63,802 nt of DNA from a virus (IMGVR_UViG_3300042922_000620:1-63802), one strand, 5' to 3'. Shown: positions 1 to 63,802, counted from the stretch's first letter. Made by a program: numbers and translations. Notes: a model not told the origin generated them from the letters alone.

Positions 1-142
1 CCGCCTCGATCTGGTCGACCGGCGCCTCCCACGTGATGACCGCGATGAGGTGCTTCTCGGCGCGGGCCAGGTTGCGGTGCGTGCGTCGCTGCACGTTGGT
101 CATGGGCTTGTCGGGGATGGTCCCGATCAGTGTCTCGTCCAT
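1..142 (-). CDS. Hypothetical protein, cut by window edge (copy of 62930-63127)
   Basis: MDETLIGTIPDKPM..., AGAAGGGA RBS, palindrome upstream. Confidence 0.75.
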   Translation of the reverse strand, partial: MDETLIGTIPDKPMTNVQRRTHRNLARAEKHLIAVITWEAPVDQIEA

Positions 143-176
143 GATGATGTTCCCTTCTGTCCCAGGATTGGGACGG

Positions 177-350
177 TCAGTGCCAGTTGTTGTCGTGGTT
201 GAGGTACGTGCGAGCGAGCACGGCGATGGTGTCGCCGACCTCGACGTCACAGAGGTAGGTGCCGCAGATCTCACAGACCAGACGGAGTTGTCCGTCGACG
301 GACTGCCGGATCTCGGCGCGCTCGAGCAGCGCGTCGGAGGTCTCGTCCAT
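177..350 (-). CDS. Small CxxC protein (cassette A, gene 2)
   Basis: MDETSDALL...VCEICGTYLC..., GGAAGGA RBS; stop abuts palindrome 159. Confidence 0.7.
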   Translation of the reverse strand: MDETSDALLERAEIRQSVDGQLRLVCEICGTYLCDVEVGDTIAVLARTYLNHDNNWH

Positions 351-351
351 G

Positions 352-759
352 TCAGTCCTTCCAGGTGCCGGCGAGGATGCCGTCGAACTCGGCGCGCACT
401 CGGGAGTACTCATACGAGATGTCCTGCGAGCGCTGCGCCTCGTACGCGGCTCTGCACAGATCCAGGGTGTAGTCGAAGTCGAAGTCGACGTCCTCGGAAC
501 CCGCTTCTCCGCGGAGGATCTGCGCGATGGTCGCGCCCTCCCATGAGGCGTCGTAGGGCACACCCAATTCCTCGATGAGGGCTGCGCCGAACAGGCACGA
601 GCCGGTCTGTCCCTCGTCTTCCGAGTAGACACACGTGCCACTGTCCTCGTACTCGACGCCTACCGGGGCCTGGTACACGAAGCCGTCGCCGCGCTTGTCG
701 AGCACGGTGTGCACGGCGTCGATGAACTCCTGGCTGGTGATGATGCGCATGATCTTCAT
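352..759 (-). CDS. Hypothetical protein (cassette A, gene 1)
   Basis: 135-aa ORF with GGAGAGG RBS directly after palindrome 767. Confidence 0.8.
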   Translation of the reverse strand: MKIMRIITSQEFIDAVHTVLDKRGDGFVYQAPVGVEYEDSGTCVYSEDEGQTGSCLFGAALIEELGVPYDASWEGATIAQILRGEAGSEDVDFDFDYTLDLCRAAYEAQRSQDISYEYSRVRAEFDGILAGTWKD

Positions 760-823
760 CCTCTCCGTCCCAAGGTTGGGACGCTCATTGACGGCTGCTG
801 CCGTCGCTCATTGACTAGGTAGA

Positions 824-852
824 ACCCTAGCCTAGGTATATCCCAGGGTCAA
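824..852 (-). promoter_or_regulatory. SigA-type promoter
   Basis: TTGACC-N17-TAGGGT on minus strand; copy at 63525-63553. Confidence 0.8.
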
Positions 853-927
853 GCCTAGGTAGTGACTTGTGCTCACTGAGCCATTCAGAGCACGGGACAA
901 TCTTCGTTGACAGCCGTGCTCACAGTG

Positions 928-1197
928 CTACCTGCGGCGGCGCACCAGGATTCGCCACACGACCGCGCGAGCGTAGTCCCAGTCGTCCCGCGCGAAGTCG
1001 CTACCAGCGTGCCTCGTCTGCATGATCCGCTTCGCACGCTTGGCCTCCCGGAAATCCTCGGGAGTGGCGCCCAGTTCCTGCAGCATGGCCACTTCCCGCT
1101 CGATCGTGTCGACGGATCGGAGTGTGTAGCACGCACCCGCTGGGGTCTCGAGCCACGTCCCAACCTTGGGACGATCTTCGTTGACGGACTCCCTCAT
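928..1197 (-). CDS. Hypothetical protein (MRESVNED...), absent from right-end copy
   Basis: AGGAGG RBS, ATGA overlap with upstream gene. Confidence 0.75.
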   Translation of the reverse strand: MRESVNEDRPKVGTWLETPAGACYTLRSVDTIEREVAMLQELGATPEDFREAKRAKRIMQTRHAGSDFARDDWDYARAVVWRILVRRRR

Positions 1198-1385
1198 CGC
1201 ATCCTCCTGTAGGCGCGGGCCAGGGTCGCCGGCTTGGGGCAGCGGGTGCGACCGAACATGCCCCAGACGTTCTCCTTGATCGTGAGCGGCTTCATCTTCA
1301 CGACCACGTACAGCACGCCGGTCTCGACGTGCTGGAACACGGAACCGAGGGCGATCGGCTGATCTTCGTTGAGCGATTCGGTCAC
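1194..1385 (-). CDS. Hypothetical protein (MTESLNED...)
   Basis: 63-aa ORF with 4-bp overlaps to both neighbours. Confidence 0.7.
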   Translation of the reverse strand: MTESLNEDQPIALGSVFQHVETGVLYVVVKMKPLTIKENVWGMFGRTRCPKPATLARAYRRMR

Positions 1386-1507
1386 AGCGCCACCGCCAGG
1401 AGGGCGACGTACCCGACGACCGCAGCGAGCGCGAGCATGCCGAGGGCGACGCGCATGAGAAGGGCGGGACCGGAGATCCGGCGTCGTTCGTTGAGCGGTT
1501 CATTCAT
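1382..1507 (-). CDS. Small membrane protein (MNEPLNE...)
   Basis: GGAGGA RBS, C-terminal hydrophobic helix. Confidence 0.6.
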   Translation of the reverse strand: MNEPLNERRRISGPALLMRVALGMLALAAVVGYVALLAVAL

Positions 1508-1647
1508 GGCATTCCTCCTGCGATGATGGCGGCGACTACCCAGACCGGGGCGCCGGTGATGAGGGCGAGTGTGGTGCACAGCGCGGACGCCTGCAGCCTG
1601 TCCCACCTGGTTCTGTCCCAGGATTGGGACGATGCCCGGGCGGTCAT
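1504..1647 (-). CDS. Small membrane protein (47 aa, not in ORF track)
   Basis: MTARASSQSWDRTRWDRLQASALCTTLALITGAPVWVVAAIIAGGMP; ATGA overlaps at both ends. Confidence 0.5.
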   Translation of the reverse strand: MTARASSQSWDRTRWDRLQASALCTTLALITGAPVWVVAAIIAGGMP

Positions 1648-1901
1648 GGCGAGACCTCGACGACTCCGTCGACTCCCAGGTCGATGACGTCGTTCCCGCG
1701 CCCGTTACCCATCGTGTCGGCATCCCAGTAGCAACCGGTCGAGTCTTCTGTGGGACACGGGGCGAGTCCGCCCGTGCGGTCATAGATCGCCGCGGCCCAT
1801 GCCAGCATGGCGACGATGACCAGGCAGAGCGCGACGACGACGATGACGCGATCCCAGCGGATCCGGTAGCGGACACTGACGCCGTTCCGATGCATGGCCA
1901 T
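1644..1901 (-). CDS. Membrane protein with CPTEDSTGCYWDA motif
   Basis: TM helix then Cys-containing exported segment. Confidence 0.7.
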   Translation of the reverse strand: MAMHRNGVSVRYRIRWDRVIVVVALCLVIVAMLAWAAAIYDRTGGLAPCPTEDSTGCYWDADTMGNGRGNDVIDLGVDGVVEVSP

Positions 1902-1975
1902 GGCCTCATTCCTCTCTGCATCCCAATCTTGGGACGCCGGTCAACATGCCGACGGTCTGTCAGGCACTAGGTAAT

Positions 1976-2004
1976 ACTCTATCGTAGGTGTGTTCGAGGG
2001 TCAA
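1976..2004 (-). promoter_or_regulatory. SigA-type promoter (leftward)
   Basis: TTGACC-N17-TAGAGT. Confidence 0.8.
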
Positions 2005-2101
2005 TCGCGGATTCCGCGTAATCCCGGGGCGCGCGCATGCCGGCATCGATGGTCGCCGTCCCAATCTTGGGACACCTCGACACGCCCACACCTAGGTAGG
2101 C

Positions 2102-2130
2102 TTGACACCTAGTCCACCTAGGCATAGTGT
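2102..2130 (+). promoter_or_regulatory. SigA-type promoter (rightward, divergent)
   Basis: TTGACA-N17-TAGTGT upstream of ORF 2196. Confidence 0.8.
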
Positions 2131-2195
2131 GTACGTAGTACGACGGATCAGCCGCCGGACACTCACAGCCCGACAGGGCAGAACGGAACGAAGAA

Positions 2196-2960
2196 ATGGC
2201 ACGCAAGAACACCACCCAGGTCGAGACGACGAACTCCCGCGCGGTCGAGGTCACGAAGCGCGGCTTGGGCATCGTCACCTCCCTCGTGAAGACGTTCACC
2301 ACGTCCGACACGATCCACGTGCGCCGGGCCCGCTACGTCGGCGCGCTGGTGGAAGCGGGGTTCTCCGTCTCGCAGATCGACTCCATCGTCCGCGCCCACC
2401 ACGGCGTCGTCCCCGGGCTGAACCGCTCCAGCATCGGTCGCTACCGCGTCGTGTACGTGCAGTCCACGCGCGAGGACGTGAGCGGCGCACTCACCACTGA
2501 CGACGCCCGCGCGGCAGTCGTCGGAGCGTTCGCACGTCTGTCGGTCAAGTCCGCCGAACTGGTCACCCGCGCGGCCGACGAGATCGCGAAAGCGAAAGGA
2601 TCGGCGCACGCCGTCGAGATCGCCGAATCCCACGTCCGCGCGCTCAACGATGCCGAATCGGGCGCGGCCGTCGCGGAACTGCAGGGCGCGGCGAAGGAGA
2701 CCGCGCGCCCCGTCGCCGGAACCGCGGACGTGTCCGCCAAGGGTGAGGCCGACGAGAACACCACGGCAGAACTCGCGAAGGCCGACGTCGCCGCCCCGCT
2801 CAAGGCCGTCGGCACGTCCGCCCTCATCGCGGAACTCGCGAGCCGCTACGCGGGCACCCGCGCCAGCGTGCACCCCGATGACGCGGAAGCGCTCACCGCT
2901 CTGCTCTCGCGCGTCGAGGCTCTCGTGACCGGAGGTCGCGTCGCGAGCAAGCGCCGCTGA
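2196..2960 (+). CDS. Ala-rich hypothetical protein, possible HTH
   Basis: 254-aa ORF between its own promoter and a terminator. Confidence 0.8.
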   Translation: MARKNTTQVETTNSRAVEVTKRGLGIVTSLVKTFTTSDTIHVRRARYVGALVEAGFSVSQIDSIVRAHHGVVPGLNRSSIGRYRVVYVQSTREDVSGALTTDDARAAVVGAFARLSVKSAELVTRAADEIAKAKGSAHAVEIAESHVRALNDAESGAAVAELQGAAKETARPVAGTADVSAKGEADENTTAELAKADVAAPLKAVGTSALIAELASRYAGTRASVHPDDAEALTALLSRVEALVTGGRVASKRR

Positions 2961-2981
2961 CCTCGCGCACGCGCATCACTC

Positions 2982-3012
2982 AGGGGCCCCTGCCACATCG
3001 GTAGGGGCCCCT
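2982..3012 (+). terminator. Hairpin terminator
   Basis: AGGGGCCCCTGCC-ACATC-GGTAGGGGCCCCT followed by CTT. Confidence 0.7.
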
Positions 3013-37208: not shown

Positions 37209-39068
37209 ATGTACGCACTGCCGACCATCACCGACTACGTCTCATGCTCGAGGCAGTGTCACATCGATCGGCCGACACCGAGTAGTGAGCCCGGCACCGA
37301 CTACGGCGTCGCGTACGGCTCGCCGCTGTTCGCCGTCGAGAGCGGCCGCGTCACCTACACGCGCACCGGCAACCACGGGCCGACCGGCCGGTACATCGAG
37401 TACGTGCTCGATGACGGCCGCACCACCCGTTCACTGCACCTGGCTGAGGTGTGGGTGAAGCCCGGCGATCGCGTGGCCCGCGGCCAGCAGATCGGCAAGA
37501 CCGGCGCATCCGGCAACGGCTCGGACTGGGGCTACGGCGCACACGTGCACCAGACCCTCTGGCCCGGAGCGGCGTGGGCGGCGCCGACGCTCGACTTCGA
37601 GAAGTACGTCGGGGGCGGGCCCATCGCTGGCAACCAGCGCATCGTGGGGCCGAACGGCGTCAAGGGTCGCGCGGACGCCACCACGGCATCCGCTGAGGTC
37701 GACTTCCTCAAGGCGGGCGTGGTCGGCACGTTCGATGGGTGGAAGAACGGTGAGAACGTCGACGGCAACCCGGTGTGGTTCCGCGGCATCTCGGGCAACT
37801 GGTTCTGGTCGGGCGGCTTCACCGACGCCGGCACTCATGACCTGACCGACCTCAACCCGCCGCCGCCTCCGGTTATCCAGCCCTACCAGCGCAAGGCGGG
37901 CCCGAACGGTGCGAACGCCCGCCTGCAGCCGTCGGCCGCTGGCGAGGCGCTGCCCTCGAGCATCGGACCCGGTGTCGTTGGCGACTTCAACGGCTGGATC
38001 AACGGCGAGGTCGTGGAGGGCAACGGCGTCTGGTTCCGCGGCTCGATCTCCGGCAACTACTTCTGGTCGGGCGGGTTCGAGGACAAGGGCACGCACGACC
38101 TCGCGGACCTGAACCCACCGAAGCCGCCACAGAAGATCACGCGCACGGTGGGCGAGAACCCCTCGAACGTGCGCGGCAAGCCGTACACGAGCGTTGCATC
38201 CGTCGCCGTCGAGGCCGCCGGCGCCGTCATCGAGATGAAGGCGTTCGCGCACAGCCAGGACGTGGAGGGCCAGGACGTCTGGTTCCAGCGCGCCGTCGAC
38301 GGCCTGTGGCAGTGGGCGGGTGGCTTCACCGACCAGTCCACGACGGGCCTGCCTGAGGTGGAGGCACCGCCGGACGGCACGGACCCGGACGACGACGAGT
38401 ACACGCCCGACATCGTCACGCCGACGGCGGAGGACTTCCCGGCGTGGATCACGTACGACGAGCGACTCGACCCGGATGCGCTCAAGCCCGATCTCAACAA
38501 GGCGGCGTACGAGTATTACGGCGTGAAGTACGACCCGATCGAGTCGCACACGCACTGGTGGAACCTGCCCGGCCAGGGCGGCACGCACGACGGGAACGTG
38601 AACTACATCCTCGGCAAGGCGGGGCTGTCGGTGAACTACGTGCTGTCGGCGGGCCGCGTGACGCTCATGGTGCCGCTGCACCTGATCGCGGCCACCACTG
38701 GGCAACGCAATCCGTTCGCGTGGAAGTCGGAGAACGACCCGCTTATCACGGTCCCGGGCTCCGATCTCGGCTACAAGACGTCGGGCTATCTGCATTACAT
38801 CGTGGAGAAGTTGAACCCGCGCCTGCGCGAGGAGGCCATCCGGCTGCACAAGGAGTTCTACGAGACGTCGTGCTCTGACATCAACACCGCGAAGGTGCGC
38901 GAATTCGCCGAGATGTTCCACTCCGGCGCGCTCGACCCCGCTACCGGGCAGCCGCCGGTGGGCCCTGAACCCGAGACCGTGACGATCAGCCACGCCGACG
39001 CCGAGGAGGTGCTGGCCGCAGCCGAGTACACCGCGACGGTCATGCGCGGTGCGCTCGGAGCGAAGTGA
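37209..39068 (+). CDS. Endolysin: M23 peptidase, three cell-wall-binding repeats, amidase-like domain
   Basis: GTDY..LHL..GQQIGKTG..AHVH (M23); 3x VWF..WxGGFxD; HTHWW...SVNY...LHKEFYETSC. Confidence 0.9.
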   Translation: MYALPTITDYVSCSRQCHIDRPTPSSEPGTDYGVAYGSPLFAVESGRVTYTRTGNHGPTGRYIEYVLDDGRTTRSLHLAEVWVKPGDRVARGQQIGKTGASGNGSDWGYGAHVHQTLWPGAAWAAPTLDFEKYVGGGPIAGNQRIVGPNGVKGRADATTASAEVDFLKAGVVGTFDGWKNGENVDGNPVWFRGISGNWFWSGGFTDAGTHDLTDLNPPPPPVIQPYQRKAGPNGANARLQPSAAGEALPSSIGPGVVGDFNGWINGEVVEGNGVWFRGSISGNYFWSGGFEDKGTHDLADLNPPKPPQKITRTVGENPSNVRGKPYTSVASVAVEAAGAVIEMKAFAHSQDVEGQDVWFQRAVDGLWQWAGGFTDQSTTGLPEVEAPPDGTDPDDDEYTPDIVTPTAEDFPAWITYDERLDPDALKPDLNKAAYEYYGVKYDPIESHTHWWNLPGQGGTHDGNVNYILGKAGLSVNYVLSAGRVTLMVPLHLIAATTGQRNPFAWKSENDPLITVPGSDLGYKTSGYLHYIVEKLNPRLREEAIRLHKEFYETSCSDINTAKVREFAEMFHSGALDPATGQPPVGPEPETVTISHADAEEVLAAAEYTATVMRGALGAK

Positions 39069-40670: not shown

Positions 40671-40702
40671 CACCGTTCCCTTCGTCCCAATCTTGGGACA
40701 GC

Positions 40703-43004: not shown

Positions 43005-43463
43005 TCATGCCGCCTCCAATACCCGAGCCGCGACCAACTGCCTGTCGGTCGGTGGTGCGAACGAGTAGTGCAGGGCCAGCAGGGTGGAGTTGTTGAAGAT
43101 GCTCGGCCACACCTCGCTCCACTCCCGGCGGACATCCGGAGCACCCGCGGGCCGTCGGTGTCTCACGACATTCGGCGACACCTTGAACTCCTCGGCGATC
43201 CACGCCGCCGGCACACCCTCTCTGCACAAGACCTGGATGCGCTCCTCGGCCTCGGGGGTGAGTTGCGCATGCACCGGCGGGCGACGGATGCCGAAGTCCT
43301 CGCGCAGCACCCGCCACACGCTGTCGACGTGGACGCGGGTGGTGGCCGCGAACTCGGCCACCACCTCACGGTCGATGCCGTTCTCCTCGACGAGACGGGC
43401 CAGCCGGGTCAGGTCGATCTTGCGCGTCCCGACCCGGTGAGCGACCTCAGTGCTCTGTGCCAT
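43005..43463 (-). CDS. HTH-like protein
   Basis: EGVPAAWIAEEFKVSPNVVR. Confidence 0.6.
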   Translation of the reverse strand: MAQSTEVAHRVGTRKIDLTRLARLVEENGIDREVVAEFAATTRVHVDSVWRVLREDFGIRRPPVHAQLTPEAEERIQVLCREGVPAAWIAEEFKVSPNVVRHRRPAGAPDVRREWSEVWPSIFNNSTLLALHYSFAPPTDRQLVAARVLEAA

Positions 43464-44496
43464 CGCCGTCCTCCACGACCTCAGCGTCGACCACGTTCGG
43501 GTCGTCTTCATGTGCCTGCTCTGCGGCCGCCTCAGCGAAGACCATGGCCTCCGCTTCGGCGGCGTCCTTCTCCTCCTCGGCCTTGGCCAGACGCTCGCCG
43601 ATCTCGACGATCCACGGGCCGAGGACCCGCTTGGGCTGGCGGCCGCGGCGGATCTCCATGTCGAGTACGCCCTGGTTCTTCGCCGCCTGCCAGAGGGAGC
43701 GGGCGTCGTCCGAGGTCTCGAGGTTGTCGACCGCCTTCTTCCAGTCGAACGCCTTCACCTCACCCGTCTCGGGGTCCGCTGCGACGTCCTCGTCCGTCTG
43801 CTGCGGCGGCGTGTCGACGATGGGGGCGGCGGCCGCGGGCGTCGATGTTTCACGTGAAACATTCGGGTGCTTGTCGGGGACCTGCTCGAGGTTGATGGGC
43901 TCGCCCATCTCGTCGGTGTTGGCGCCGAGTTCGTCAGGCGAGTACGTCGCACCCATGAGCACCTCGGGGCACGCCTCGCGCACGCACTCGGTGATCGAGC
44001 GCGCCTTGAGCATGGACCGCCGGTACTTCTTCCAGTTGTCCTTGTTGTCCACCCCCGCAGCCCTGGACTCCGCAGCGCCCCACTCCACACGGAAGGTGAA
44101 GTCCGGGTCATCAGAGCGGACGATCTCACAGATCGCCTTGAGGTTCGGGCCGGTGCCCTCGGTCCACACGCGCAGCCGGTGACCCGCCTCGCGCACGAGC
44201 GCCGCCTGCAGGTTAGCCGAGAGGCTCGGCTTGCCCTCGATGATGTGGATGTTCGTGAGCCCGACCATCGGGTTCACGCCGACCATCGCCGCCGTCTCGA
44301 GCATGTAGAGGATGGCGCCGGGGTTGGGCCGGGGCGGCACCATCACGCCGTCGACGTTCTCCGGCTTGGTCCAGAAGTTCTTGGGCACCAGTTCGCCGGC
44401 GCGTGAGAGTGCGACGGCGTACTGCTGCTTCTCGGTCAGCGACGAGCGGCCGTACGTGCCGACGCGTGCGAGATCCTTGCCAGGCTGTTCGGTCAT
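43447..44496 (-). CDS. recT: RecT-like ssDNA annealing protein
   Basis: IHIIEGKPSLSA, KDNWKKYRRSMLKARSITECVREACPEVL; next to exonuclease. Confidence 0.8.
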   Translation of the reverse strand: MTEQPGKDLARVGTYGRSSLTEKQQYAVALSRAGELVPKNFWTKPENVDGVMVPPRPNPGAILYMLETAAMVGVNPMVGLTNIHIIEGKPSLSANLQAALVREAGHRLRVWTEGTGPNLKAICEIVRSDDPDFTFRVEWGAAESRAAGVDNKDNWKKYRRSMLKARSITECVREACPEVLMGATYSPDELGANTDEMGEPINLEQVPDKHPNVSRETSTPAAAAPIVDTPPQQTDEDVAADPETGEVKAFDWKKAVDNLETSDDARSLWQAAKNQGVLDMEIRRGRQPKRVLGPWIVEIGERLAKAEEEKDAAEAEAMVFAEAAAEQAHEDDPNVVDAEVVEDGDGTEH

Positions 44497-44795
44497 AGTG
44501 AATGGTCCTCCACGAGGTCGTAGGTCTGATCGAAGATGTCGGGCTTGCACGGGTAGAACTCGCCCTGCACGCCGCGAATGACGACGTCACCGATCGTCAC
44601 AGCCATGTCGCCCTCAAGGGTGCGGATGTAGAACAGCACGCTGTCGTCGATGTGGTCGGGTCGGTCCTCGGCGTCGATGCTCGGCAGAACTCCACCGCAC
44701 CACGCGAGCACAGCGAGGTCCTCGTCGTAGCCAAGGCCGGTGCGCATGAACTGCTTCTCGACGGGGCGGGAGCGGGCAAGCCCGGGATGGGTCAC
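44493..44795 (-). CDS. Conserved phage protein (GEFYPCKPDIF family)
   Basis: IRTLEGDM..GDVVIRGVQGEFYPCKPDIFDQTY. Confidence 0.8.
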   Translation of the reverse strand: MTHPGLARSRPVEKQFMRTGLGYDEDLAVLAWCGGVLPSIDAEDRPDHIDDSVLFYIRTLEGDMAVTIGDVVIRGVQGEFYPCKPDIFDQTYDLVEDHSL

Positions 44796-45895
44796 GGCTT
44801 CACTTCCTTCGGGGTGATGGTCATGCGGCGGCTGAACTTGCCGGCCTTGACGACCTTGCGGACCTTGGTGTGCTTCTCGATGAGCGCCTGTGCGCGCTCG
44901 TACTGCTGCTTCTCGCGAGCGTTCATCCCGTCGATGTCGAGGTAGGACTCGTTGGTGCTGGTCGTGCGACCCTCCGACGAAGACACCGACAGCGTGGCGA
45001 ACCCGAGGTCGTGCTTGCAGTCCGGGGCCTCCGGGTGCAGGTAGACGGCGGCCAGCGCGTCCCACGACTTCTCCCGTGCCGCCTCCGCGGCGGCCGCGGC
45101 ATCCCGTGCCTTGAGCACCTCCTGCACCCACACGGCATGCTCGGTCGGGAAGTCGCTGACCGGCGGCAGTTCGTCCGTGCGCAGCGCGAGCGCCCGGTCG
45201 ATCTCAGCCAGCGCCCTGGGAGCGACCTTCTCGACGAGCGCGTCGATGAGGTCCTGGTTGCGCGGCACCCACACGAACTGAGGCGGCCCGATCGGCGTGA
45301 ACGTCCCCGACTCCGGGTCGATCTTGTCGTCGTGCTGCTCCCAGACGAACAGCGTGCGATCCGCGTTCATCACATACATCTGCCACTGCATCTGCGTGTA
45401 GTAGTTCGAGCGGTCGAAGTGCGAACCCGGCACGATGTCCACCAGCACACGAGCCTCGTCGATGGTGCCGGGGTGCAGGTCATGCTTGCTCGTCTTGATC
45501 TCGGCGAGCACGGCTTGCGGCACGCCGACGTACAGTTCGCCGGTGAACGGGTCTCGCGAGATCCCGTCCGGGCTGGCCAGGTGGCGCGAGTTCTCCGGGT
45601 GGGCGTACGTGGACTCGCACGGGGTGATGCCGAACTTGCTCTCGATCCACGCGCTGATCGCGGGCTCGCGGATGTTGCCGTGGTTCACGTACGGCAGGTG
45701 TGAGAGGTCCTCGAAGTTGCCAGTGACCTTCTCCTCGATGATCTGCCGACGCTTGGAGGCGGTGCCCCAGTCGCGGATCTGCGTGGCGGTCAGGCCAGGG
45801 CGGCGGAAGTCGAGCCACGGTTGACGCGTCTCCGGCCGCTGCTTGTCGTAGCGGGGGCCCTCAATGGGCACCTGCAGCGTGAGGGTCGAGGTCAT
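44792..45895 (-). CDS. YqaJ/RecE-like exonuclease
   Basis: GLTATQI, HGNIREP, ASPDG, EIKT, YYTQMQWQMYV. Confidence 0.9.
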   Translation of the reverse strand: MTSTLTLQVPIEGPRYDKQRPETRQPWLDFRRPGLTATQIRDWGTASKRRQIIEEKVTGNFEDLSHLPYVNHGNIREPAISAWIESKFGITPCESTYAHPENSRHLASPDGISRDPFTGELYVGVPQAVLAEIKTSKHDLHPGTIDEARVLVDIVPGSHFDRSNYYTQMQWQMYVMNADRTLFVWEQHDDKIDPESGTFTPIGPPQFVWVPRNQDLIDALVEKVAPRALAEIDRALALRTDELPPVSDFPTEHAVWVQEVLKARDAAAAAEAAREKSWDALAAVYLHPEAPDCKHDLGFATLSVSSSEGRTTSTNESYLDIDGMNAREKQQYERAQALIEKHTKVRKVVKAGKFSRRMTITPKEVKP

Positions 45896-46422
45896 GCTGT
45901 TCCCTGCTTCCTGGCGAGATACCTCGCCTGCTGTTCGCGCGGGCACTCGAGGCACCTGCGTCGTCCGTTCTTGCGCTTGACCAGCACGTGCCCCTTCGGG
46001 CAGTGCGTCTTGCGCCTGTTGATCTCTGTGGGCGACGGCCGCCCCGTCTCCCGGGCCAGCCGGCGCTCTGCGCGGCAAGTCTGGCAGCGGTGTCCGACAC
46101 CCTCCACCCAGTCGTCAGGGCCGTACTCGTGGCCCTTCGGGCACTCGGCTCGCGCTGCGGGTCCGGGCACCACGGTCCACAGGTAGGGGTTCACGTTGCG
46201 CGCGTGGGTTCCGGGCTTTCGGGCCAGCCCGGAACCCCGCGGTATTGCCCCGAGGATCTGCTCGTACAGGTGGACGACCAGCCGGACGGGCATCTGGTCG
46301 ACGTAGATCCACGGCGTGTCCTCGCCCTTCCAGTACGCCCAGTCCGGCAGGAGCAACTCCCGGTCGGGGTTGGCCTCGATGGTCTGGACGATCACCTGCT
46401 CGATCTCGGGGCTGTACTTCAC
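45892..46422 (-). CDS. Degenerate HNH-like protein with two CPKGH zinc repeats
   Basis: RNVNPYL remnant; CPKGHEY..CQTC and THCPKGH..CLEC. Confidence 0.6.
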   Translation of the reverse strand: MKYSPEIEQVIVQTIEANPDRELLLPDWAYWKGEDTPWIYVDQMPVRLVVHLYEQILGAIPRGSGLARKPGTHARNVNPYLWTVVPGPAARAECPKGHEYGPDDWVEGVGHRCQTCRAERRLARETGRPSPTEINRRKTHCPKGHVLVKRKNGRRRCLECPREQQARYLARKQGTA

Positions 46423-46649
46423 CGCTCGCCACCTCCGACGTGCCTTGTCGCGATGCGGTGGATCCCGAAGATGACCACGACGAACGGCCAGAACAGCGCG
46501 AGGATGAACGACAGAAAGCCCATTATCAAGATGATCTCGATGGGCCCCATGAACTTGTCCTTCTCGTTGCGATAGAGAATGCCGTAGGACGCGATCCAGG
46601 TGACGAGAAGCCCGACGATGTACACGGCCAGGATCAGCCACCCGATCAC
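46419..46649 (-). CDS. Membrane protein
   Basis: Two TM helices, FWP motif. Confidence 0.7.
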   Translation of the reverse strand: MIGWLILAVYIVGLLVTWIASYGILYRNEKDKFMGPIEIILIMGFLSFILALFWPFVVVIFGIHRIATRHVGGGER

Positions 46650-47104
46650 GGCGCCTTCTCCATCCCGCCCGGAACTCCGGGCCATTGCTCGCCGAGACGA
46701 GTGCGGTGGTGAGACATGTCGCGCGGGCCGGTGGTGAACTCGCGCGGCCCGAAGATGCACGGCTCGCCAACGCCAGCCCCGCACTGTGGGCATGGAATCG
46801 ACCTAATCTCCTGGACCTTGGTGGGCACCTTGCCGACCCACTCCCCGCCGCCGCTCACGGCGCCGTCGAAGTACGGACCAGGGGTGTCATCCTGGAACAG
46901 GCCCATGTCAGCGAATGCGGCAGTGCCCTCCTTGTCCGCGACTTGGAAGCGGAACGAGAGGCGATACCACTGCCCCAGTGGGAGTCCCGCCATCTGGTGT
47001 GTGATGTGGTGCGGCAGGCGCAGCGTGACATTCACGCGGTTCTCGCGCTCGTCCCGCAGCGCCGCCTCGAGTTCGGCGATCCGCTTCGCCTTACGCCCGA
47101 ACAT
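46646..47104 (-). CDS. Hypothetical protein with C-terminal zinc finger
   Basis: CPQCGAGVGEPC...HHRTR; GGAGGAGG RBS after palindrome. Confidence 0.7.
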   Translation of the reverse strand: MFGRKAKRIAELEAALRDERENRVNVTLRLPHHITHQMAGLPLGQWYRLSFRFQVADKEGTAAFADMGLFQDDTPGPYFDGAVSGGGEWVGKVPTKVQEIRSIPCPQCGAGVGEPCIFGPREFTTGPRDMSHHRTRLGEQWPGVPGGMEKAP

Positions 47105-47510
47105 CGGACACCTCCTCCATCCCAAGATTGGGACGCTCGCCACCCAGGATCACGATCAGGTCGTCGAGCGTCATGAGGACCAACTGCTCCCCCATCCGCG
47201 TCTCGCCGATGCCGACTCGCTTCGCGATGACGCACGTCGCTGCAGCGTCGTCGTTCACGCGCTCGATCTCGGCTTCTTTCAGGAAGCCGGCTACCGTCAA
47301 CTTCGTGGTGTTCTTCACCTCGATCGTGAGTGGGCGGCCGTCGGGCAGGCGGACGTTCGCGATGTCGCCGCGGTCGGCCCTTCCCGTCTTCGTCCGCCGC
47401 TGGATGAACTCGGCGAAAGGGAGCCGGGCCAGGCCGGCACGCAGGTAGGAGACGGACTGCGTCTCCATCCACGTGCCAGCCTGCCGGGCCGTCCGGTGCG
47501 ATCGCGCCAT
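47091..47510 (-). CDS. Holliday junction resolvase (PD-(D/E)xK)
   Basis: AGTWME, DRGDI, TIEVKN, EAEIERVN. Confidence 0.8.
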   Translation of the reverse strand: MARSHRTARQAGTWMETQSVSYLRAGLARLPFAEFIQRRTKTGRADRGDIANVRLPDGRPLTIEVKNTTKLTVAGFLKEAEIERVNDDAAATCVIAKRVGIGETRMGEQLVLMTLDDLIVILGGERPNLGMEEVSDVRA

Positions 47511-47973
47511 CAGGATTCCTCCGCCACGTTCTCGACCTGCTGGCGTAGTGCCGCGACGCGGCGGCGGGCGATGGAGATGCGCGTCGATTGCATCTGTGTC
47601 CGCTCGGCCAGTACGTCCTCGATCTGGGCGAGCGCCGCGAGAACCACCTCGGCGTTGACTGTGCGTGCCATCAGAACTTTCTCCCCGTGTCCGTCTCGCC
47701 GTGAAGCACAACCTCCCCGGTCGAGAAGGTGTAGTGAATGGACCGGATGAGCCCTGAGTACATGAGCACGCGACCTCGCCGGATCTCGACGTAGGAGCGC
47801 ATCGCCTGTACTGCGCTCACCCTGCCGCGCTGCCACCAGCGCACCTTGTGGAAGCGCACGTCGATCCAGCGGTGGTCGCGTACGTCGATGCTGTCGACGT
47901 GGCGGAGGGTGACGGGGAGGCTCGTGGGGTTCACGAGCCTCACCGCCCACCTCGGCTTAGAATGGGGTGTCAT
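47510..47973 (-). CDS. Two hypothetical ORFs (47510-47671, 47671-47973)
   Basis: TGATG-coupled ORFs. Confidence 0.55.
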
Positions 47974-48448
47974 CGCCGTACGCCCCCGGTGCCGCCCAGG
48001 CGTCGCTGTCGCCAGCACCCGGCGTAGCCCACGGTTCGTCACTCACCGTGGTGCGCGGGGCGGATGCCGTGCCCGTGCTGTTGCCGGCGGCACGGATGAC
48101 CTGCGCCGTGGCGTAGCGCAGGCTCGGGCCAATCTCGTCGACCTCGAGTTCGATCGCGGTGCGGTTGTTGCCCTCGCGGTCCTGGTAGGAGCGCTGCTTG
48201 AGGCGGCCGGTCGCGATGACCCGCATGCCCTTAGTCAGCGAACCGGCCACGTGCTCGGCGAACTCGCGCCACACCGAGGCTCGGAGGAACAGCGCTTCGC
48301 CGTCCTTCCACTCGTTGGACTGGCGGTCGAAGTTGCGCGGCGTCGACGCGATCGTGAAGTTCGCGACGGGCAGGCCGTTCTGCGTGTACCGCAGTTCGGG
48401 GTCGGCGGTGAGGTTGCCGACGACGGTGATGAGGGTCTCGCCCGCCAT
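47957..48448 (-). CDS. ssb: Single-stranded DNA-binding protein
   Basis: [22 protein letters not shown]...[10 protein letters not shown]...DDTPF. Confidence 0.97.
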
Positions 48449-49262
48449 CAGAAGTCCTCCAGGTCCAGGTCGTCGTCCTTGGAGTCCTTGGCCGCCCGCT
48501 GCTTCGCGTCCGTATCGACGTCGACGCCGCGGGCGATCAGGCGGCGTGATGCGATGACCGACGCATCGAGCGGGTAGAGGGTCTCGTGCCGGTTCCCTGC
48601 TGCGCCCTCGCTCCACTTCGGGTGGAGGAACGCGACGCCGTCGAAGATGTACGCCGCGCCGGTTCCGTCATCGAATGTCAGCGCCCACACGTCGCCGGGC
48701 TGCGGCTCTACCACCTCCTGCGGAACGTCGTCGGCCGGTATCCCCTTCGGGACGATGAGCAGCCCGCTGGATCCTGAGTCCTGCACATCGATCTGGTCGA
48801 GGTACTGCTCGGGCACGCGGACGATGGCCGGAGAGTCGACGACCTTGGCGTCGATGACGTCCTGGTCGAACGACTTGCGGTAGATCTCTGCGATCTCCGG
48901 CAGCATCGCTGCGATGTCGCCGCCGGTGGTCTCGCGCAGGTCGACCTCGATGCGCTGCGTGTCACCGGGATCGGTGCCGCCGACGAGCGCTCCGGCGAAC
49001 CCGCCCTTCGGGGGTCCCTGCTTCTCGCTCTCGATACGGATGGTGGCTTCCATGATTCTCCTCAGAGGTTGGCCAGGTTGACGGCTTCGACGAGCCATGC
49101 AACTGCTTCGGGGTCGGGTTCGTGGCGCCCCTCCGGCGCCTTGACGTGGGCTTTGAGCGCGCCGGTGATCGCGTCCTTGGAGACGAGCACGGCGCACATG
49201 CGCTCGTCTTCCGCGCTGGCTTCGTCGAAGACGACGAACTTGGTCTGGCGTGTGGTGGCCAT
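48448..49262 (-). CDS. Two hypothetical ORFs (48448-49053, 49062-49262)
   Basis: RBS-preceded ORFs downstream of promoter 49298-49326. Confidence 0.65.
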
Positions 49263-49335: not shown

Positions 49336-50507
49336 TCACGTTCCGTGCACCGTCACCATCGCGCTGCACACCCGGCACTCGATGTCGTCACCGTTGGGTT
49401 CGACGTCGGGCGGTTCGCACTCCTGGACCTCGCCGCACTCGGGGCAGTTCCAGACGTACCAGACGTACGCCTGGGCCTCCGGGTCCTCATCGCTCATCGC
49501 AGGATGCACCCCCGGTGCGGCATCACGTGCCGCTCGCACCTCGCGCAACACCGGCTGTCGTGCTTGGCCAGCGCTTCGGCCACGTCCGGACTGTCGGAGT
49601 CCATGCGCAGCAGCGCCACCACCGTGGCGTGGCGAGTGGGCTGCGCGAGCGCATCGCGGAACTCGTCGAGGATCTTCTGGTCGTGCGGCGAGATCGGCCG
49701 CGGGTCGGTGTCCTCGAAGCGCACGGTCATGAGTAACCACCCTTCTCTCCCTGGACCATCGGAATGCCGGCTGCAACCGATCGCGCCGTGTGGTAGCCGA
49801 GGTTCGGGTCACACGGCTGACCGTGCTTCGCGCCGCACTTCGGGCAATCCACCTTCCCCGGGCAGACGCCTCCGTTTGGGTGCCAGTGTGGCGCAAGGGC
49901 AGCCTCCTCGGGGAACTGGCTGAGGTGACAGGCGCACACGCACATGTCGACGCACGCGACCCGGCGTCGAGCCGCCGACGCCACTCCGCGGTGGGACCGG
50001 CGGGCCATCACAGCACACCCCACAGTTCAAGGATGACCCAGAACAGCAAGATCACGATGGCGACAATGGCGAGCGTGGCACCCACGACCCGAGCCGCCAT
50101 GCCCGGGCCGTCGACCCGCCAGATGATGACGAATATCACGCCGAACACGATGGCGACAAAGGTGGCGAGGGCACCGATCCCGCGCCAGAGTTCCGCGTCC
50201 ATCAGTCAGTCCGCTTCTCGAAGCGAGCACGGCGCATGGCCATTGCTGCAGCCACGGCTCGGTACTCATCCGTCCCTGGCTCGGGGTCCTCGCCCACCCA
50301 GATCGACTCGAGAGCGTAGTTCATGTTCTCGTCCCACATCTCCACCGTGATGCGCGCTCGCACGCTCGGCGTCAGGCCCGGCCAACCGGGGATGACCTCG
50401 CTGTTGCCGTGCATCTCGGCGACCTTCTCGGCGATGATCTTGTTGGGCTGCGGGTAGATGGCGCCGGTCAGGGTGTCGCGCACGGACCACTTGCCGTCGT
50501 CACTCAT
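49336..50507 (-). CDS. Five small ORFs (49336-49497, 49494-49730, 49727-50008, 50008-50202, 50202-50507), three Cys-rich, one membrane
   Basis: Coupled starts/stops; CPEC..CRVC; CARC; CPKCGAKHGQPC. Confidence 0.6.
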
Positions 50508-51521: not shown

Positions 51522-52162
51522 GATGAGCCGAGCCCGAGATCGTCGATGTACTTCTGGACCTCGAGTGGTGACCTCGCGATCGCGGTCTGGACGTAGCGCA
51601 TCGGCGCCTGCGGGCGTGCCTTCGCTTTGTCGAGGATCCACAGCGCGACATTGAGACGTTCCTCAAGGCTGAGGAACCGGCGGCACCACGCCTCGATCGA
51701 GTCGCCGAGGTTATACAGATCCATCTCTGACAGACCCGCCCGGCTGGCGACACCCCTCATCGTCGGCGACAACACTGAGTCAGTCCTGTCGCTCGCCGCT
51801 ATGGGACTGGACTGACTCGGAATGTCTTGGTCAAGTCCTTCTATTGAGGGTTCTTGGGGCGGAAGCAATTTGCCGGGGGCCCCGGAAGTATATTCCGCCC
51901 CCACTGCGAGCGTGTATACGTTCGACGTCTGGCTCCCGTTCGGCCGTAGCCGCACCTGGGTGTGCACAAGTCCGGCGTCCTCGAGACCGCGGATGATGGT
52001 GCGCACGCTGCGCGCGGTGAGCGAGGACTTATCGGCGAGAGTCTCCATCGACGGCCAGCACTCGTGCCGCTCCCCGGCGAAGTCGGCGAGCGCGAGCAGG
52101 ACGATCTTCTCGGCGGGACGCAGGTGCTGCTTGAACGCCCACGTCATGGCTTCGAGGCTCAT
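51518..52162 (-). CDS. RepA-like HTH replication initiator
   Basis: MSLEAMTWA..EKIVLLALAD..CWPSMETLA..RSVRTIIRGLEDAGLV..QTSNVY. Confidence 0.8.
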   Translation of the reverse strand: MSLEAMTWAFKQHLRPAEKIVLLALADFAGERHECWPSMETLADKSSLTARSVRTIIRGLEDAGLVHTQVRLRPNGSQTSNVYTLAVGAEYTSGAPGKLLPPQEPSIEGLDQDIPSQSSPIAASDRTDSVLSPTMRGVASRAGLSEMDLYNLGDSIEAWCRRFLSLEERLNVALWILDKAKARPQAPMRYVQTAIARSPLEVQKYIDDLGLGSS

Positions 52163-54065: not shown

Positions 54066-54177
54066 GATGTGTCCTTTCAGAGACGGTCGTCGTCCTCGTC
54101 CACGTCTACCCAGCCGGGCAGACCATGGGGCGAGGCATGTGTTGAAGTATGCCCTAGGTGCTCGGGCCCAGCAACAC

Positions 54178-57972: not shown

Positions 57973-58007
57973 GATGTTCCCTTCGTCCCAAGGTTGGGAT
58001 GGTCAGC

Positions 58008-58059: not shown

Positions 58060-58071
58060 AGTTCGGATAGA

Positions 58072-59094: not shown

Positions 59095-59164
59095 GATGTT
59101 CCCTTCTTCTGTCCCAAGGTTGGGACGGTGAGTGAGGCGTTCGCCTCCTTGATTGCTAGGTAAG

Positions 59165-60971: not shown

Positions 60972-61569
60972 TCAGTCCTTGCGTGCTCGTGCCTCCTCGC
61001 CATGGACGTAGCCGAGCAGGTACTCGTCGTCCGATGACTCGATGGGCAGACCGAGCCACCCGTCGAGGTAGCCCTTCTGCTGCGGCGTCGGCTCACTCAT
61101 TGACTGTCCCAACCTTGGGACGAGAGTGCGCTACGACCTTGCCGACGAGCCCCGACGCGATCGCATCCTGCAACTCGCCGTCGATGAACTCGGTGACCAT
61201 GTCGCGCGCCTCGACCGACATGTCGCCCACGTCGATCTGCAGTTCGGCGAGCACGACCGACTCGTCGTCGCTGGCGCCGAGGATGTACTCGTTGTATCGG
61301 GTGACGGCCCATCTCCGGTTGATGGACCAGTCGAACCCGCCGCTGAACTCGTTAGCCCACGCCACGACGTAGACCGGGCGCTTGTCGATGATGACGGCGC
61401 CGAATAGCGAGGCCCCCCGCAGGAAGACGCACGCGCCGCTCTCCTCCACAAGCCACCCGGTGCCGATCCTCTCCTTGAGGGTGAGCACGGCGCCGGGCGC
61501 AGGCAGAGACGTAGCGCCCCAGCCGGAGCCGGTGAGGCGGACCTTCTTGCCGACGAGTGGATCAGCCAT
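60972..61569 (-). CDS. Two hypothetical ORFs (60972-61100, 61093-61569)
   Basis: 42-aa MSEPTPQQKGYLDGW.. lies between palindromes 60938 and 61106. Confidence 0.6.
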
Positions 61570-62392
61570 TGCCCTGCTCCTTGAGCATGCGCTGCACGTC
61601 GCCGGCGCCGGTTACCAGGCGGGCGGTCCCCTCCTGGATGAGCAGGTGGCACCCTGCGGATGCCGCGCTGGTGATTGGACCCGGAACGGCACCGATGGGT
61701 CGCTCCAATCCCGCCGCATGGTTGGCCGCGTTGAGTGAGCCGGAGCGAGCGCCCGCCTCCGCCACGACCATGCCCCGAGCGTGTGCGGCGATCAGCCGGT
61801 TGCGTCGCAGGAACCGCCACCTCGTGGGTGCCTCGCCGGGAGGTGTCTCACTGAGAACAGTCCCGTACTGCGCGATCCGCTTGATGAGGTCGGCGTGCCC
61901 CGCCGGATACGGGCGGTCCACCCCGCCGGCCAGGTACGCGATGGTCGGCCGACCCGTGGCGAGTGCGCCTCGATGAGCAGCCGCGTCGATGCCGTAGGCG
62001 GCACCGGACACGATGGTCATCCCCTCGAGCCCTCCCACGATCTCGCGGGTGATGTGCTCGCCGTACGTCGTGCATGCACGGGCGCCGACGATGGCGATGG
62101 AGGGATCCTCGTTGACGATCCGACGGCCCAGCGCCCACAGCATCGGTGGCGCGTCGGGCAAATCGAGCAGTCCCTTCGGGTACTCGTCGGACGAGCGGTC
62201 GATGATGCGGATCTCGAGCGGGTCGAAGTCCTTCCGGTAACCCGCGTTGATCTCGTCGGCGCGCTGCTGACGAGCGAGGTGTACCCACCTCACGGCTTGC
62301 CGGCTGGTGTCGGTCGCCCGTGTGCACGGGTAGCCGACGGGTGACTGGCATGCGGGGCATGCGATCCCCGTCGCTGCGATCTGGTCAAGCAT
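61562..62392 (-). CDS. dprA: DprA-like DNA processing protein with N-terminal zinc finger
   Basis: AIVGARACTTYG, IVSGAAYGIDAAAHRGAL, FLRRNRLIA, VVAEAGARSGSL, AVPGPITS..GCHLLI. Confidence 0.93.
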   Translation of the reverse strand: MLDQIAATGIACPACQSPVGYPCTRATDTSRQAVRWVHLARQQRADEINAGYRKDFDPLEIRIIDRSSDEYPKGLLDLPDAPPMLWALGRRIVNEDPSIAIVGARACTTYGEHITREIVGGLEGMTIVSGAAYGIDAAAHRGALATGRPTIAYLAGGVDRPYPAGHADLIKRIAQYGTVLSETPPGEAPTRWRFLRRNRLIAAHARGMVVAEAGARSGSLNAANHAAGLERPIGAVPGPITSAASAGCHLLIQEGTARLVTGAGDVQRMLKEQGNG

Positions 62393-63127
62393 TGCTCTGC
62401 CCTCCTGTCCCAACCTTGGGACGATGGATGATGGTGCCGGCGAACGGCATGTACGCGCCGGGCCAGACGGCCCACTCGTACGGATCGTCGCCCCAGGTGA
62501 ACAGTCCAGCGGCATCCTCCGGGCGGTCCTGCCAGATCGCACGCTTGATGACGACGACGTCGCCACGATGGGGCACGTCGGGCTCGACGTGCACGTCGTC
62601 CACCCACGCCTCGCCGGTGAGCACGACGGCGTCGCCCGGCTGGAAGATGACGTCAGCCACGGCGTGCCGCCCTTCGGATCTCGGCCTCGATGAGGTCGAG
62701 CAGGTCCTCTCCGTCGAAGTATTCGTCCTCGCGGTGGAGGAAGCGCACGGTGTCGCTCAGATGCTCGACGACACCCCGGGTGTACTCGCTCTCGCGCCAC
62801 GTCAGCCCGTCGCAGGCAAGCCCGGCGATCGTCAGGATCTCCTGCCCGCGGGGCGAGAGATAGTGGATGATGCCTTCCTCCCGCGTCAGTCGCAGGTAGC
62901 GTCGCGTGATAGGCAGACGCTCGCTAGTCTCAGCCACGGCACGCCGCCTTCCATGCACGAGTCCACCTGTTGACGCGGCGTTCGGCCGCCTCGATCTGGT
63001 CGACCGGCGCCTCCCACGTGATGACCGCGATGAGGTGCTTCTCGGCGCGGGCCAGGTTGCGGTGCGTGCGTCGCTGCACGTTGGTCATGGGCTTGTCGGG
63101 GATGGTCCCGATGAGCGTCTCGTCCAT
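62385..63127 (-). CDS. Three hypothetical ORFs (62385-62660, 62653-62937, 62930-63127)
   Basis: Overlapping leftward ORFs. Confidence 0.65.
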
Positions 63128-63802
63128 GATGATGTTCCCTTCTGTCCCAGGTTTGGGACGGTTAGAAGGTCATGCGGCGAAGTCCGCCGCGCGACCCGAT
63201 GAAGAAGCCGACGCGCGGGGTGCGGTCGGCGATGCGCTCGGCGAGGTCGTCGCTGTCCCGGAACGGTGGCGCGTCGTCGAAGATCACGACGTGCGCGGCA
63301 TCGCTGAGGAGGATCTGGCCACCGCCGTCAGGTGCTGTCTGCCAGGCGCCGACGTTGACCAGCAGTTCGCGGGCCTCGGCGATGGACGCGGTGCGCCACA
63401 CGATGGGCTCGGCGAGCGAGCCTCCATCGGTGAGGCGGGCGATGTAGGTGTCCATGACTGCCTCTCTGTCCCAAGGTTGGGACGCTCATTGACGGCTGCT
63501 GCCGTCGCTCGTTGACTAGGTAGAACCCTAGCCTAGGTATAGCCCAGGGTCAAGCCTAGGTAGTGACTCGTGCTCACTGAGCCATTCAGAGCACGGGACA
63601 ATCTTCGTTGACAGCCGTGCTCAACGGAGCCGACGGTAGGCGCGGGCCAGGGTCGCCGGCTTGGGGCAGCGGGTGGCGACCGAACATGCCCCAGACGTTC
63701 TCCTTGATCGTGAGCGGCTTCATCTTCACGACCACGTACAGCACGCCGGTCTCGACGTGCTGGAACACGGAACCGAGGGCGATCGGCTGATCTTCGTTGA
63801 GC
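62986..63802. repeat. Imperfect terminal redundancy, right copy
   Basis: Three blocks matching 1-177, 760-922 and 1209-1374. Confidence 0.95.
63162..63455 (-). CDS. Hypothetical protein (cassette B)
   Basis: 97-aa ORF with GAGAGG RBS, filling the space between palindromes 63144 and 63468. Confidence 0.8.
   Translation of the reverse strand: MDTYIARLTDGGSLAEPIVWRTASIAEARELLVNVGAWQTAPDGGGQILLSDAAHVVIFDDAPPFRDSDDLAERIADRTPRVGFFIGSRGGLRRMTF

Follow-up and report, generated by a model that had tools for sequence, protein, structure and literature searches.

In this work, we have analysed a variable gene slot in the virus record IMGVR_UViG_3300042922_000620 of IMG/VR, a metagenomic actinophage from soil; the whole record of 63,802 bp (67% G+C), which the database classes as linear, 100% complete and without end repeats, is referred to here as the window. 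In this slot, alternative small open reading frames (ORFs) stand between two copies of a 16-bp dyad, GTCCCA-N4-TGGGAC, and each end of the record carries a different version. Our best explanation, which we hold to be probable when taken as a whole, is that the record is a wrap-around assembly of a phage genome of ~62.4–63.0 kb, that its ends are two haplotypes joined by the assembler and not two parts of one molecule, and that the cassettes are turned over by ordinary homologous recombination at gene-start modules.

The two ends of the window match in three blocks: 1–180 with 62986–63165 (98%), 760–922 with 63461–63623 (98%) and 1248–1374 with 63676–63802 (100%). This confirms an earlier interpretation made from the letters only (the sequence-only reading), which had described the ends as matching through a palindrome at 159/63144 and again from just before a second one at 767/63468. 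Its description of the content was also borne out, namely two genes between the palindromes in the left copy (177–350 and 352–759, here ORFs A1 and A2 of cassette A) versus one unrelated gene in the right copy (63162–63455, cassette B). All slot genes lie on the minus strand, and BLASTP finds no relatedness of B to A1 and A2 (E 6.5 in one comparison, no alignment in the other), though all three have a coding-like composition, with GC at codon position 3 of 0.87–0.88. As had been noted as well, in both copies the stop codons begin 3 nt outside the downstream palindrome and a Shine-Dalgarno-like ribosome binding site (AGAGAGG or GGAGAGG) abuts the upstream one.

The base-by-base comparison shows that the left copy is identical to the right one over 1–127 and 1209–1374, and that the differences form one continuous tract rather than merely the part between the palindromes. 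In the left copy they fall at 128, 131, 167, 178, 766, 810, 841, 868, 923 and 924, together with two non-homologous segments. The tract is mosaic, with pieces of 98% identity (the start of a 65-amino-acid (aa) gene, the dyads and the promoter) and two non-homologous pieces, the cassettes and an extra ORF of 89 aa (928–1197). The latter is found in the left copy only and is a second difference that the sequence-only reading did not contain.

We aligned Logan contigs of four runs (X1–X4) to 60500–63802, of which X1, a soil metagenome, is the probable source run. In X1, the flank is a 3424-nt contig of depth 154 that covers 60500–63151, and cassette B lies on a 376-nt contig (63122–63497) of depth 64 with zero differences. 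Another contig, of depth 80, joins 63162 to 63461 with other content between them. The promoter stretch is represented by two 119-nt contigs (depths 69 and 58, with 0 and 3 differences, respectively), and the form with the extra ORF has a depth of 85, that without it 64. Since it is the combined depth of the alleles, and not the depth of each, that matches the flank, the alleles should be alternatives in one population, at about 55:45; judged by contig depth, cassette A goes with the extra ORF and cassette B with the form lacking it. Were this a true repeat on one molecule, each allele would show the full depth and the flanks twice as much, so the overlap is best read as the second pass of the assembler through a bubble. 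This fits what the sequence-only reading had offered as a fallback, namely two coexisting strains joined by the assembler.

More combinations are found in the other three runs. X2 (depth 272) has cassette B together with the extra ORF, the 286 letters between the same flanks being the exact length of 923–1208, and X4 has B without the extra ORF. X3 has a third allele, which starts at 63162, 3 nt after the dyad, replaces 63163–63337 with 335 letters, and continues into the 5' third of B at ~91% identity; the extra ORF is present. At 63675, the right copy has a G that the left copy lacks and that puts its gene X out of frame; this G is probably an assembly error in the record, since it is missing in the contigs of all four runs.

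The slot can be compared with G001 (62,565 bp), the only close relative in the collections searched, whose DUF932 protein is 80% identical; searches with the 65-aa protein and an 18-nt leader and a metagenome scan each returned only this genome. In G001 the slot is empty: the aligned promoter, one dyad and the 65-aa gene are present, with no cassette. A homologue of A2 (43% identical) occupies a different slot there, again directly after a dyad, and the 46-aa and 158-aa genes stand in reversed order in the two phages. Thus the palindrome-delimited slot proposed earlier stands in part: it is polymorphic (A, B, the third allele, and empty in the relative) with limits at two dyads, but the dyads are general and the exchanged tract is wider. 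The proposed SigA-type promoter upstream of it stands in a similar way, as the window site was read by eye and fails the -10 threshold of our promoter scan, but its aligned counterpart in G001 (TTGACT-18-TACAGT, L009 6243-6272) passes.

The dyad itself is far from restricted to the slot. It has 20 matches in the record (16 exact and four with one mismatch), against 0.32 expected from 100 shuffles, among which the largest count was 3. All 16 exact copies have a four-nucleotide spacer with varying centre sequences, and none occurs at spacings of 0–3 or 5–10. In the transcribed orientation, the usual order is stop codon, 2–4 nt, dyad, AGA-purine-rich Shine-Dalgarno sequence and start. Among the 17 dyads of the leftward early arm, 11 end 12–21 nt before a start codon and one ends 34 nt before it, three lie within the first 7–41 nt of an ORF, one lies between divergent promoters, and one follows a stop and precedes a terminator-like hairpin (distances to starts rest on our own gene calls). 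Overall, dyads occur not only at ~18 gene starts but also beside terminators and within coding sequence, there in three reading frames. Their placement at gene starts across the genome indicates a general gene-start element, not the mark of one slot.

In G001, the same half-sites enclose a centre of three nucleotides, in 21 of 21 copies within 21 kb, and the whole genome has 28 dyads versus one for the reversed control. The spacer is exclusive by phage, with no 4-nt copies in G001 and no 3-nt copies in the window. Nine dyads adjoin orthologous genes in both phages, four-nucleotide centres here facing three-nucleotide centres there, and so the change of spacer should have been a concerted one, affecting many sites. 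In the 91-aa gene, whose end is involved, it shifts the frame of the protein's last residues. No enriched dyad was found in the relatives of 57–59% identity (L010, L011, L014, L015) or in two more distant loci.

As for the function, the dyads within coding sequence are read in different frames (RPKVGT and SSQSWD here; MSQPGT, RPSLGQ and ASQGGT in the relative), and so the constraint acts on the nucleotides. The predicted RNA hairpin is stable, with a folding energy of about -9.7 kcal/mol, and the dyad centres in the early arm of G001 are C-rich on the transcribed strand in 17 of 21 cases. From such sequence features, we lean slightly towards an RNA hairpin beside the ribosome binding site, with a duplex site for a dimeric protein as the less favoured, though still substantial, possibility. 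Invariant arms and a fixed spacer in each genome would also fit homogenisation among the copies.

Six neighbouring small ORFs, three in each phage (minus-strand starts 1385, 1197 and 1507 in the window; 21396, 21620 and 21886 in G001), open with a common nucleotide leader around TCAACGAA(GATC), while their bodies have no mutual similarity. The codons of this leader run against the genome's bias at codon position 3, and the dyad directly follows it in three of the six ORFs. As minor observations on the dyads, a TCAAYRA motif lies within 16 nt 5' of the dyad in 2 of 15 cases here and in 5 of 21 in G001. The dyad at 40684–40699, which adjoins a terminator-like hairpin between the convergent arms, is followed by an RBS-like GAAGGGAAC (RBS, ribosome binding site) and then by no ORF; it may be a relic of a lost cassette.

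The same pattern, with dyads of other sequence, is seen in cultured phages. We compared nine Gillianvirus right ends, taken from 17 records matching the OneinaGillian right end after leaving out one duplicate record, one genome with the coordinates and identity of BirdInFrench, and six weak matches. The dyads are positionally conserved across the nine genomes, and one slot occurs in three states: empty in five, with a 150-nt ORF in RobinRose and CandC, and with an unrelated 117-nt ORF in Pepe25 and Marcie. Each of these ORFs is bracketed by two direct copies of the dyad plus ~14 nt, and its stop codon overlaps the dyad; CTCAACGAACGGAG follows the dyad at this slot. Of our 63 query proteins (62 from the early arm, plus the plus-strand ORF 2196–2960), seven match the OneinaGillian right arm. 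The sequence-only reading had suggested collecting palindrome-to-palindrome units from relatives; alternative cassettes between dyads do exist in Gillianvirus, but only three of the seven indel loci there touch a dyad.

Three further phages, picked from the terminase list and not systematically, each have their own start-associated dyad before early genes: GATTTCCC-NN-GGGAAATC with 4 copies in Microbacterium phage Phinky (L039), GTTCAG-TGCA-CTGAAC with 12 copies in Curtobacterium phage Kithara (L040), and GGTCGG-N4-CCGACC with 24 copies in Arthrobacter phage Rizwana (L041). On the transcribed strand, 22 of the 24 Rizwana copies have a GCAA or GTAA loop, and this GNRA bias points to an RNA hairpin. 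A literature search with the letters of the window motif gave only primer lists, and one on Arthrobacter phage repeats gave nothing relevant.

Based on the above analyses, the following course of events would account for the record. The assembler would have passed the same region twice, each time taking one branch of a population polymorphism. The haplotypes differ in one tract just downstream of an early promoter, with alternative small ORFs between two dispersed dyads, the dyad being a gene-start element that may act as an RNA hairpin directly 5' of the ribosome binding site or as a site for a dimeric protein. Ordinary homologous recombination between co-infecting relatives may add, remove and exchange the cassettes, presumably via the phage's own RecE/RecT/SSB (SSB, single-strand DNA binding protein) or the host's RecA. 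The homology would come from the conserved flanks and, in part, from the dyad-plus-Shine-Dalgarno modules that recur before many genes. The polymorphism, its anatomy and the matching pattern in relatives are observed, and the pathway of recombination and a causal part of the dyad are inferred. As to the candidates named in the sequence-only reading (RecE/RecT, DprA and a resolvase), genes for RecE-like, RecT-like and DprA proteins are present, but the Pfam scan of 82 ORF translations shows no resolvase family.

Several observations weigh against this explanation. The depths come from contigs, in which, unlike in reads, linkage along one molecule and rare variants are not visible, and the X1 contig of depth 80 is presumably cassette A, the content between its flanks not being displayed. 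Since the copies are identical outside 128–1208 and 63113–63635, the latest exchange would have had its ends in ordinary homology, one within the 65-aa gene and the other in the final 12 nt of gene X. Judged from this comparison, these ends would lie past both dyads and not at them, and the limits at the dyads would date from earlier and have been carried along with the exchanged piece. Neither limit of the extra-ORF indel falls at a dyad. The sequence-only reading had tied breakpoints to the palindromes, which found no support: against G001, gene-order breakpoints lie at 11 of 13 junctions with a dyad and at 38 of 47 without one (Fisher p = 1), in a test of 60 early-arm junctions that is saturated with its 49 breakpoints and uses our own gene and orthologue calls. 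In the nine Gillianvirus right ends, 226 pairwise gaps reduce to seven indel or replacement loci (grouped by eye), of which three touch a dyad and four do not; cassettes can thus be flanked by dyad modules, but gene turnover does not require them. Between the dyad modules of the window, the longest exact in-register run has a median of 8 nt and a maximum of 21 nt (105 pairs), which is short for annealing-type recombination. Against the hairpin, the window's dyad loop shows no strand bias (10 pyrimidine-rich versus 7 purine-rich centres), and arms invariant within a genome fit a sequence-specific binding factor as well as a hairpin.

Much of this would be expected if the dyads took no part in recombination, with illegitimate or flank-driven exchange occurring anywhere and selection keeping the products cut at gene boundaries. 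As dyads would stand at many boundaries for regulatory reasons, their coincidence with the slot would then have no meaning. The breakpoint counts against G001, the recently exchanged tract that extends beyond both dyads, the exact homology of mostly ~8 nt, and the four of seven Gillianvirus loci with both limits at least 47 nt from any dyad all agree with this. However, the Gillianvirus cassettes lie between direct repeats (dyad plus ~14 nt) that are single copy where the cassette is absent, which is a signature of recombination between repeats, and non-homologous ORFs have a nucleotide-identical 5' leader ending in the dyad. The same is reported for Cluster O phages in the available text of the published paper (PMC4351075). 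We therefore consider a bystander role of the dyads unlikely, though it deserves real weight.

A further, improbable reading is that the dyad and the ribosome binding site together form a portable module for gene starts, each lineage having its own 'dialect', and that gene exchange would thereby be channelled among phages of the same dialect. The copies within a genome would be kept identical by a co-evolving factor or by gene conversion, and any ORF could drop in behind the module, even in frame, as the leader TCAACGAAGATC plus dyad common to unrelated ORFs may illustrate. Candidate dialects would be GTCCCA-N4-TGGGAC here, its three-nucleotide-centre form at nine orthologous gene starts in G001, and the other sequences in Gillianvirus, in Squashvirus, and in one Curtobacterium and one Arthrobacter phage.

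In integrons, promoterless cassettes are lined up behind one promoter, the tyrosine recombinase IntI is encoded beside the array, and the attC sites are long imperfect palindromes. The sequence-only reading had drawn an analogy to integrons. A dedicated system of this type would have a phage enzyme that acts on the dyad, in its duplex or its hairpin form, to put ORF cassettes in behind the promoter or take them out. The alternative first-position content behind one promoter does resemble it, as do the limits of the A/B slot and of the Gillianvirus slot, both at dyads, the empty site with one dyad in G001, and the X3 allele that begins 3 nt after the dyad. But a Pfam search of 82 ORF translations (some small ORFs being outside the scan) found no recombinase, transposase, resolvase, integrase, HUH or serine recombinase family. 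In addition, the repeats are not attC-like: they have 16 bp and perfect arms, and they occur at ~18 gene starts, in coding sequence in three frames and next to terminators. Many breakpoints have no dyad, with no enrichment at the dyads. A mechanism specific to the palindromes is therefore quite improbable; there is no support for a dedicated integron-like system, and no new recombination system is revealed.

Finally, that both versions sit on one molecule, as a true terminal repeat or a duplication whose copies have diverged, is extremely improbable: although a single contig holds both and G001 is classed as having direct terminal repeats, the alleles have depths of 64 and ~80 beside flanks of 154, instead of 154 each with doubled flanks, IMG/VR lists no end repeats, and the copies are not the identical ends at twice the unique depth that define direct terminal repeats, as they are 98% identical and differ by single-nucleotide polymorphisms and two indels.

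Our preferred explanation, joined haplotypes with cassette turnover at gene-start modules, has several published counterparts. According to the available text on Cluster EG Microbacterium phages (Gillianvirus), their right ends have 8–10 copies of an 18-bp inverted repeat, GATCAACCNNGGTTGATC, with two short inverted arms 2 bp apart, in short intergenic regions 14–22 bp before the starts of leftward genes (Jacobs-Sera et al. 2020, PMC7302621). They resemble the window in these start-associated repeats, in genome size and layout, and in a ~40% identical terminase. On the other hand, the repeat is GATCAACCNNGGTTGATC there and GTCCCAANNTTGGGAC here, the copies here are more numerous (18 per genome) and partly inside coding sequence, and the available text of that description makes no mention of cassette indels (PMC7302621).

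For Cluster O mycobacteriophages, the text available describes more than 30 copies of a 17-bp dyad repeat, TGTTCGGNNNCCGAACA, with invariant 7-bp arms and a variable centre, mostly intergenic or near the 5' ends of genes in the leftward arm and of unknown function (Cresawn et al. 2015, PMC4351075). Recombination between two repeats is the explanation given there for indels, one of them immediately after a promoter, and as to function the preference is for a site bound by a dimeric protein, a part in transcription being considered doubtful (PMC4351075). The sequence (TGTTCGGNNNCCGAACA versus GTCCCAANNTTGGGAC) and the host differ, and the phasing to the start codon is tighter here. The window shares with both clusters invariant arms with a variable centre of fixed length, copies far above chance, placement before leftward early starts, and segments between two copies where relatives have one (G001 empty; Gillianvirus five of nine empty and four filled). 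The consensus GTCCCAANNTTGGGAC differs from GATCAACCNNGGTTGATC and TGTTCGGNNNCCGAACA, which makes it the same kind of element with another motif.

The sequence-only reading had also likened the slot to early-gene cassette shuffling in phages, and this comparison is apt. The classic case is that of the PeSLs of T4-type phages, regulatory modules that, as far as the accessible parts of two papers go, recur in front of ORFans where the early region is hyperplastic (Arbiol et al. 2010, PMC2839356; Comeau et al. 2014, PMC4122927); between these modules, small genes are inserted, deleted and replaced by homologous recombination (PMC2839356, PMC4122927). Mini-circles that arise when neighbouring elements exchange are another feature of PeSLs. 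They differ from the dyad in that each unites a sigma-70 promoter with a terminator stem-loop and offers far more homology than the 16 bp here; in the window, there are only three promoter-like sites in the early arm, and most dyads have no promoter. The SAS/ESAS elements of Cluster K mycobacteriophages, in the part of the source available, pair an inverted repeat with a conserved motif that lies shortly after it, at the ribosome binding site (Pope et al. 2011, PMC3203893); they are tied to gene starts across different gene families, with a proposed role in translation initiation (PMC3203893). The ESAS arms are 17 bp and imperfect with a variable spacer of 4–13 bp, and SAS is a conserved 13-mer, whereas the Shine-Dalgarno region here is only loosely conserved. 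Relaxed recombination by phage annealing proteins has been described, in the text at hand, as a source of mosaicism (PMC3945230).

Considering these systems, the slot is an ordinary instance of phage mosaicism, located at conserved gene-start modules of a hyperplastic early arm, and its kind has already been published. What it adds is a population snapshot of early-gene turnover in an uncultivated soil phage, with two haplotypes in one sample and more combinations in three other runs, and it connects this turnover with a class of start-associated inverted repeats that had been published but not explained. The wider pattern may outweigh the slot in usefulness, since distant actinophages each keep their own invariant dyad before early genes. 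One dyad per lineage, with GNRA loops in one of them, makes the function of the repeat testable (RNA hairpin versus protein site) and suggests where to seek early genes that are gained and lost fast.

The coordinates of the features are collected in Table 1.

Table 1. Features of the slot, the end overlap and the recombination-related genes in the window (63,802 bp)
Feature	Position	Strand	Remarks
Left copy of common stretch	1..180	.	Matches 62986-63165, 98%; holds 5' part of 65-aa gene (2-142, -) and dyad 159-174
Variable tract, haplotype L, 1081 nt	128..1208	-	Base-by-base comparison of copies; identical outside tract
Variable tract, haplotype R, 523 nt	63113..63635	-	Base-by-base comparison of copies
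Downstream dyad of slot, left copy, GTCCCA-N4-TGGGAC	159..174	.	2 nt after A1 stop, 16 nt before 65-aa gene start
Cassette A, ORF A1, 57 aa	177..350	-	GC at codon position 3 = 0.88
Cassette A, ORF A2	352..759; likelier start 750, giving 132 aa	-	Matches phrog_572, function unknown
Upstream dyad of slot, left copy	767..782	.	41 nt after -10 hexamer, 16 nt before ATG 750
Promoter-like site TTGACC-17-TAGGGT	824..852 (right copy 63525-63553)	-	-35 at 852-847, -10 at 829-824; read by eye
Inverted repeat, 8-bp arms GAGCACGG...CCGTGCTC, 18-nt loop	888..921 (right copy 63589-63622)	.	Between upstream gene's stop and slot promoter
Extra 89-aa ORF, haplotype L only	928..1197	-	Dyad 1157-1172 inside first 14 codons; present in runs X2 and X3 too
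Gene X, 63 aa	1194..1385	-	Right copy 63586-63802, frameshifted in record by extra G at 63675
65-aa gene directly downstream of slot	62930..63127	-	68% identical in relative G001
Downstream dyad of slot, right copy	63144..63159	.	Motif scan
Cassette B, 97 aa	63162..63455	-	No family match
Upstream dyad of slot, right copy	63468..63483	.	12 nt before ATG 63455
RecT-like annealing protein	43447..44496	-	phrog_561 E 4.2e-32; Pfam RecT only 19.3 bits, below cut-off
RecE-like exonuclease (YqaJ domain)	44792..46078	-	phrog_434 E 1.7e-16
Single-strand DNA binding protein (SSB)	47957..48616	-	Profile matches
DprA with N-terminal phage zinc-finger domain	61562..62392	-	PF02481 E 4.7e-64; PF24623 E 5.6e-6

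For the cassettes themselves, A1 has no homologue except itself among 5.8 billion proteins. The start of A2 at 750 is likelier as it leaves 9 nt between GGAGAGG and the ATG; in the protein atlas, A2 falls in unnamed phage clusters, and nothing usable was obtained for B. Cassette B has four homologues of 59–74% identity in other metagenomes, none in the viral contigs, and neither A2 nor B was found by tblastn in cultured phages. A1 (340–350) and the 65-aa gene (132–142 and 63117–63127) begin with the same 11 nt, ATGGACGAGAC, either by chance or as the remnant of a junction within the 5' end of the latter.

Around the extra ORF, the last four residues of gene X are nearly the same in the right copy but are encoded by different codons, and the gene there leads directly into the inverted repeat. 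The loop of this repeat contains a TCAACGAAGAT motif, and no T-run is present. A recombination between two copies of GGGACRATCTTCGTTGAC was our first reading of the extra-ORF indel and has been dropped, as the alignment of the copies does not support it.

The promoter scan gave one promoter-like site in 1–2600 and one in 52000–63802, the third early site being read by eye, and each of the three is followed by a dyad ~40 nt later. The words TACCTAG and CCTAGGTA recur around or just after the -10 of each of these sites in both phages (window 783–870, 1940–2110 and 59140–59200; L009 4760–4960, 6240–6300 and 9890–9960), and may be an operator or an initial-transcript motif.

In the general layout, rightward genes from ~2196 to 40670 encode the large terminase, a MuF-like fusion protein, tail proteins and an M23 peptidase (Pfam), and leftward genes run from 63802 down to 40752 and from 2311 down to 1. 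Besides the recombination-related proteins of Table 1, the early arm encodes DUF932 and DUF7178 proteins and a replication-initiator-like protein. The terminase is ~40% identical to those of Microbacterium (Gillianvirus, Squashvirus), Curtobacterium, Arthrobacter and Gordonia phages. A DNA search of cultured phages with 1–3000 gave no match, the DprA probe found none in viral contigs and only matches below 60% identity in phages, and the dyad plus RBS pattern was found in no viral contig. In the genome collection, the DUF932 profile had no match, and the 18-nt leader had eight single matches in unrelated taxa, which we took as chance.

Some further features were observed elsewhere in the genome. 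A low-depth contig of X4 (3.5) skips 469 nt (61093–61561), with the loss of the 158-aa gene and the dyad at 61106; it may come from a more distant relative, since one side of the joint is only ~85% identical. The phage zinc-finger domain of DprA is also found in two further proteins (46646–47143 and 49727–50023), and in G001 (L009 7198-7578) it is fused to a different C-terminal part, with the dyad at L009 7320 directly after the finger. Within the M23-peptidase-domain gene (37209–39068), two direct copies of 76% identity, at 37788–37870 and 38046–38128 and 258 nt apart, probably represent a repeated protein module.

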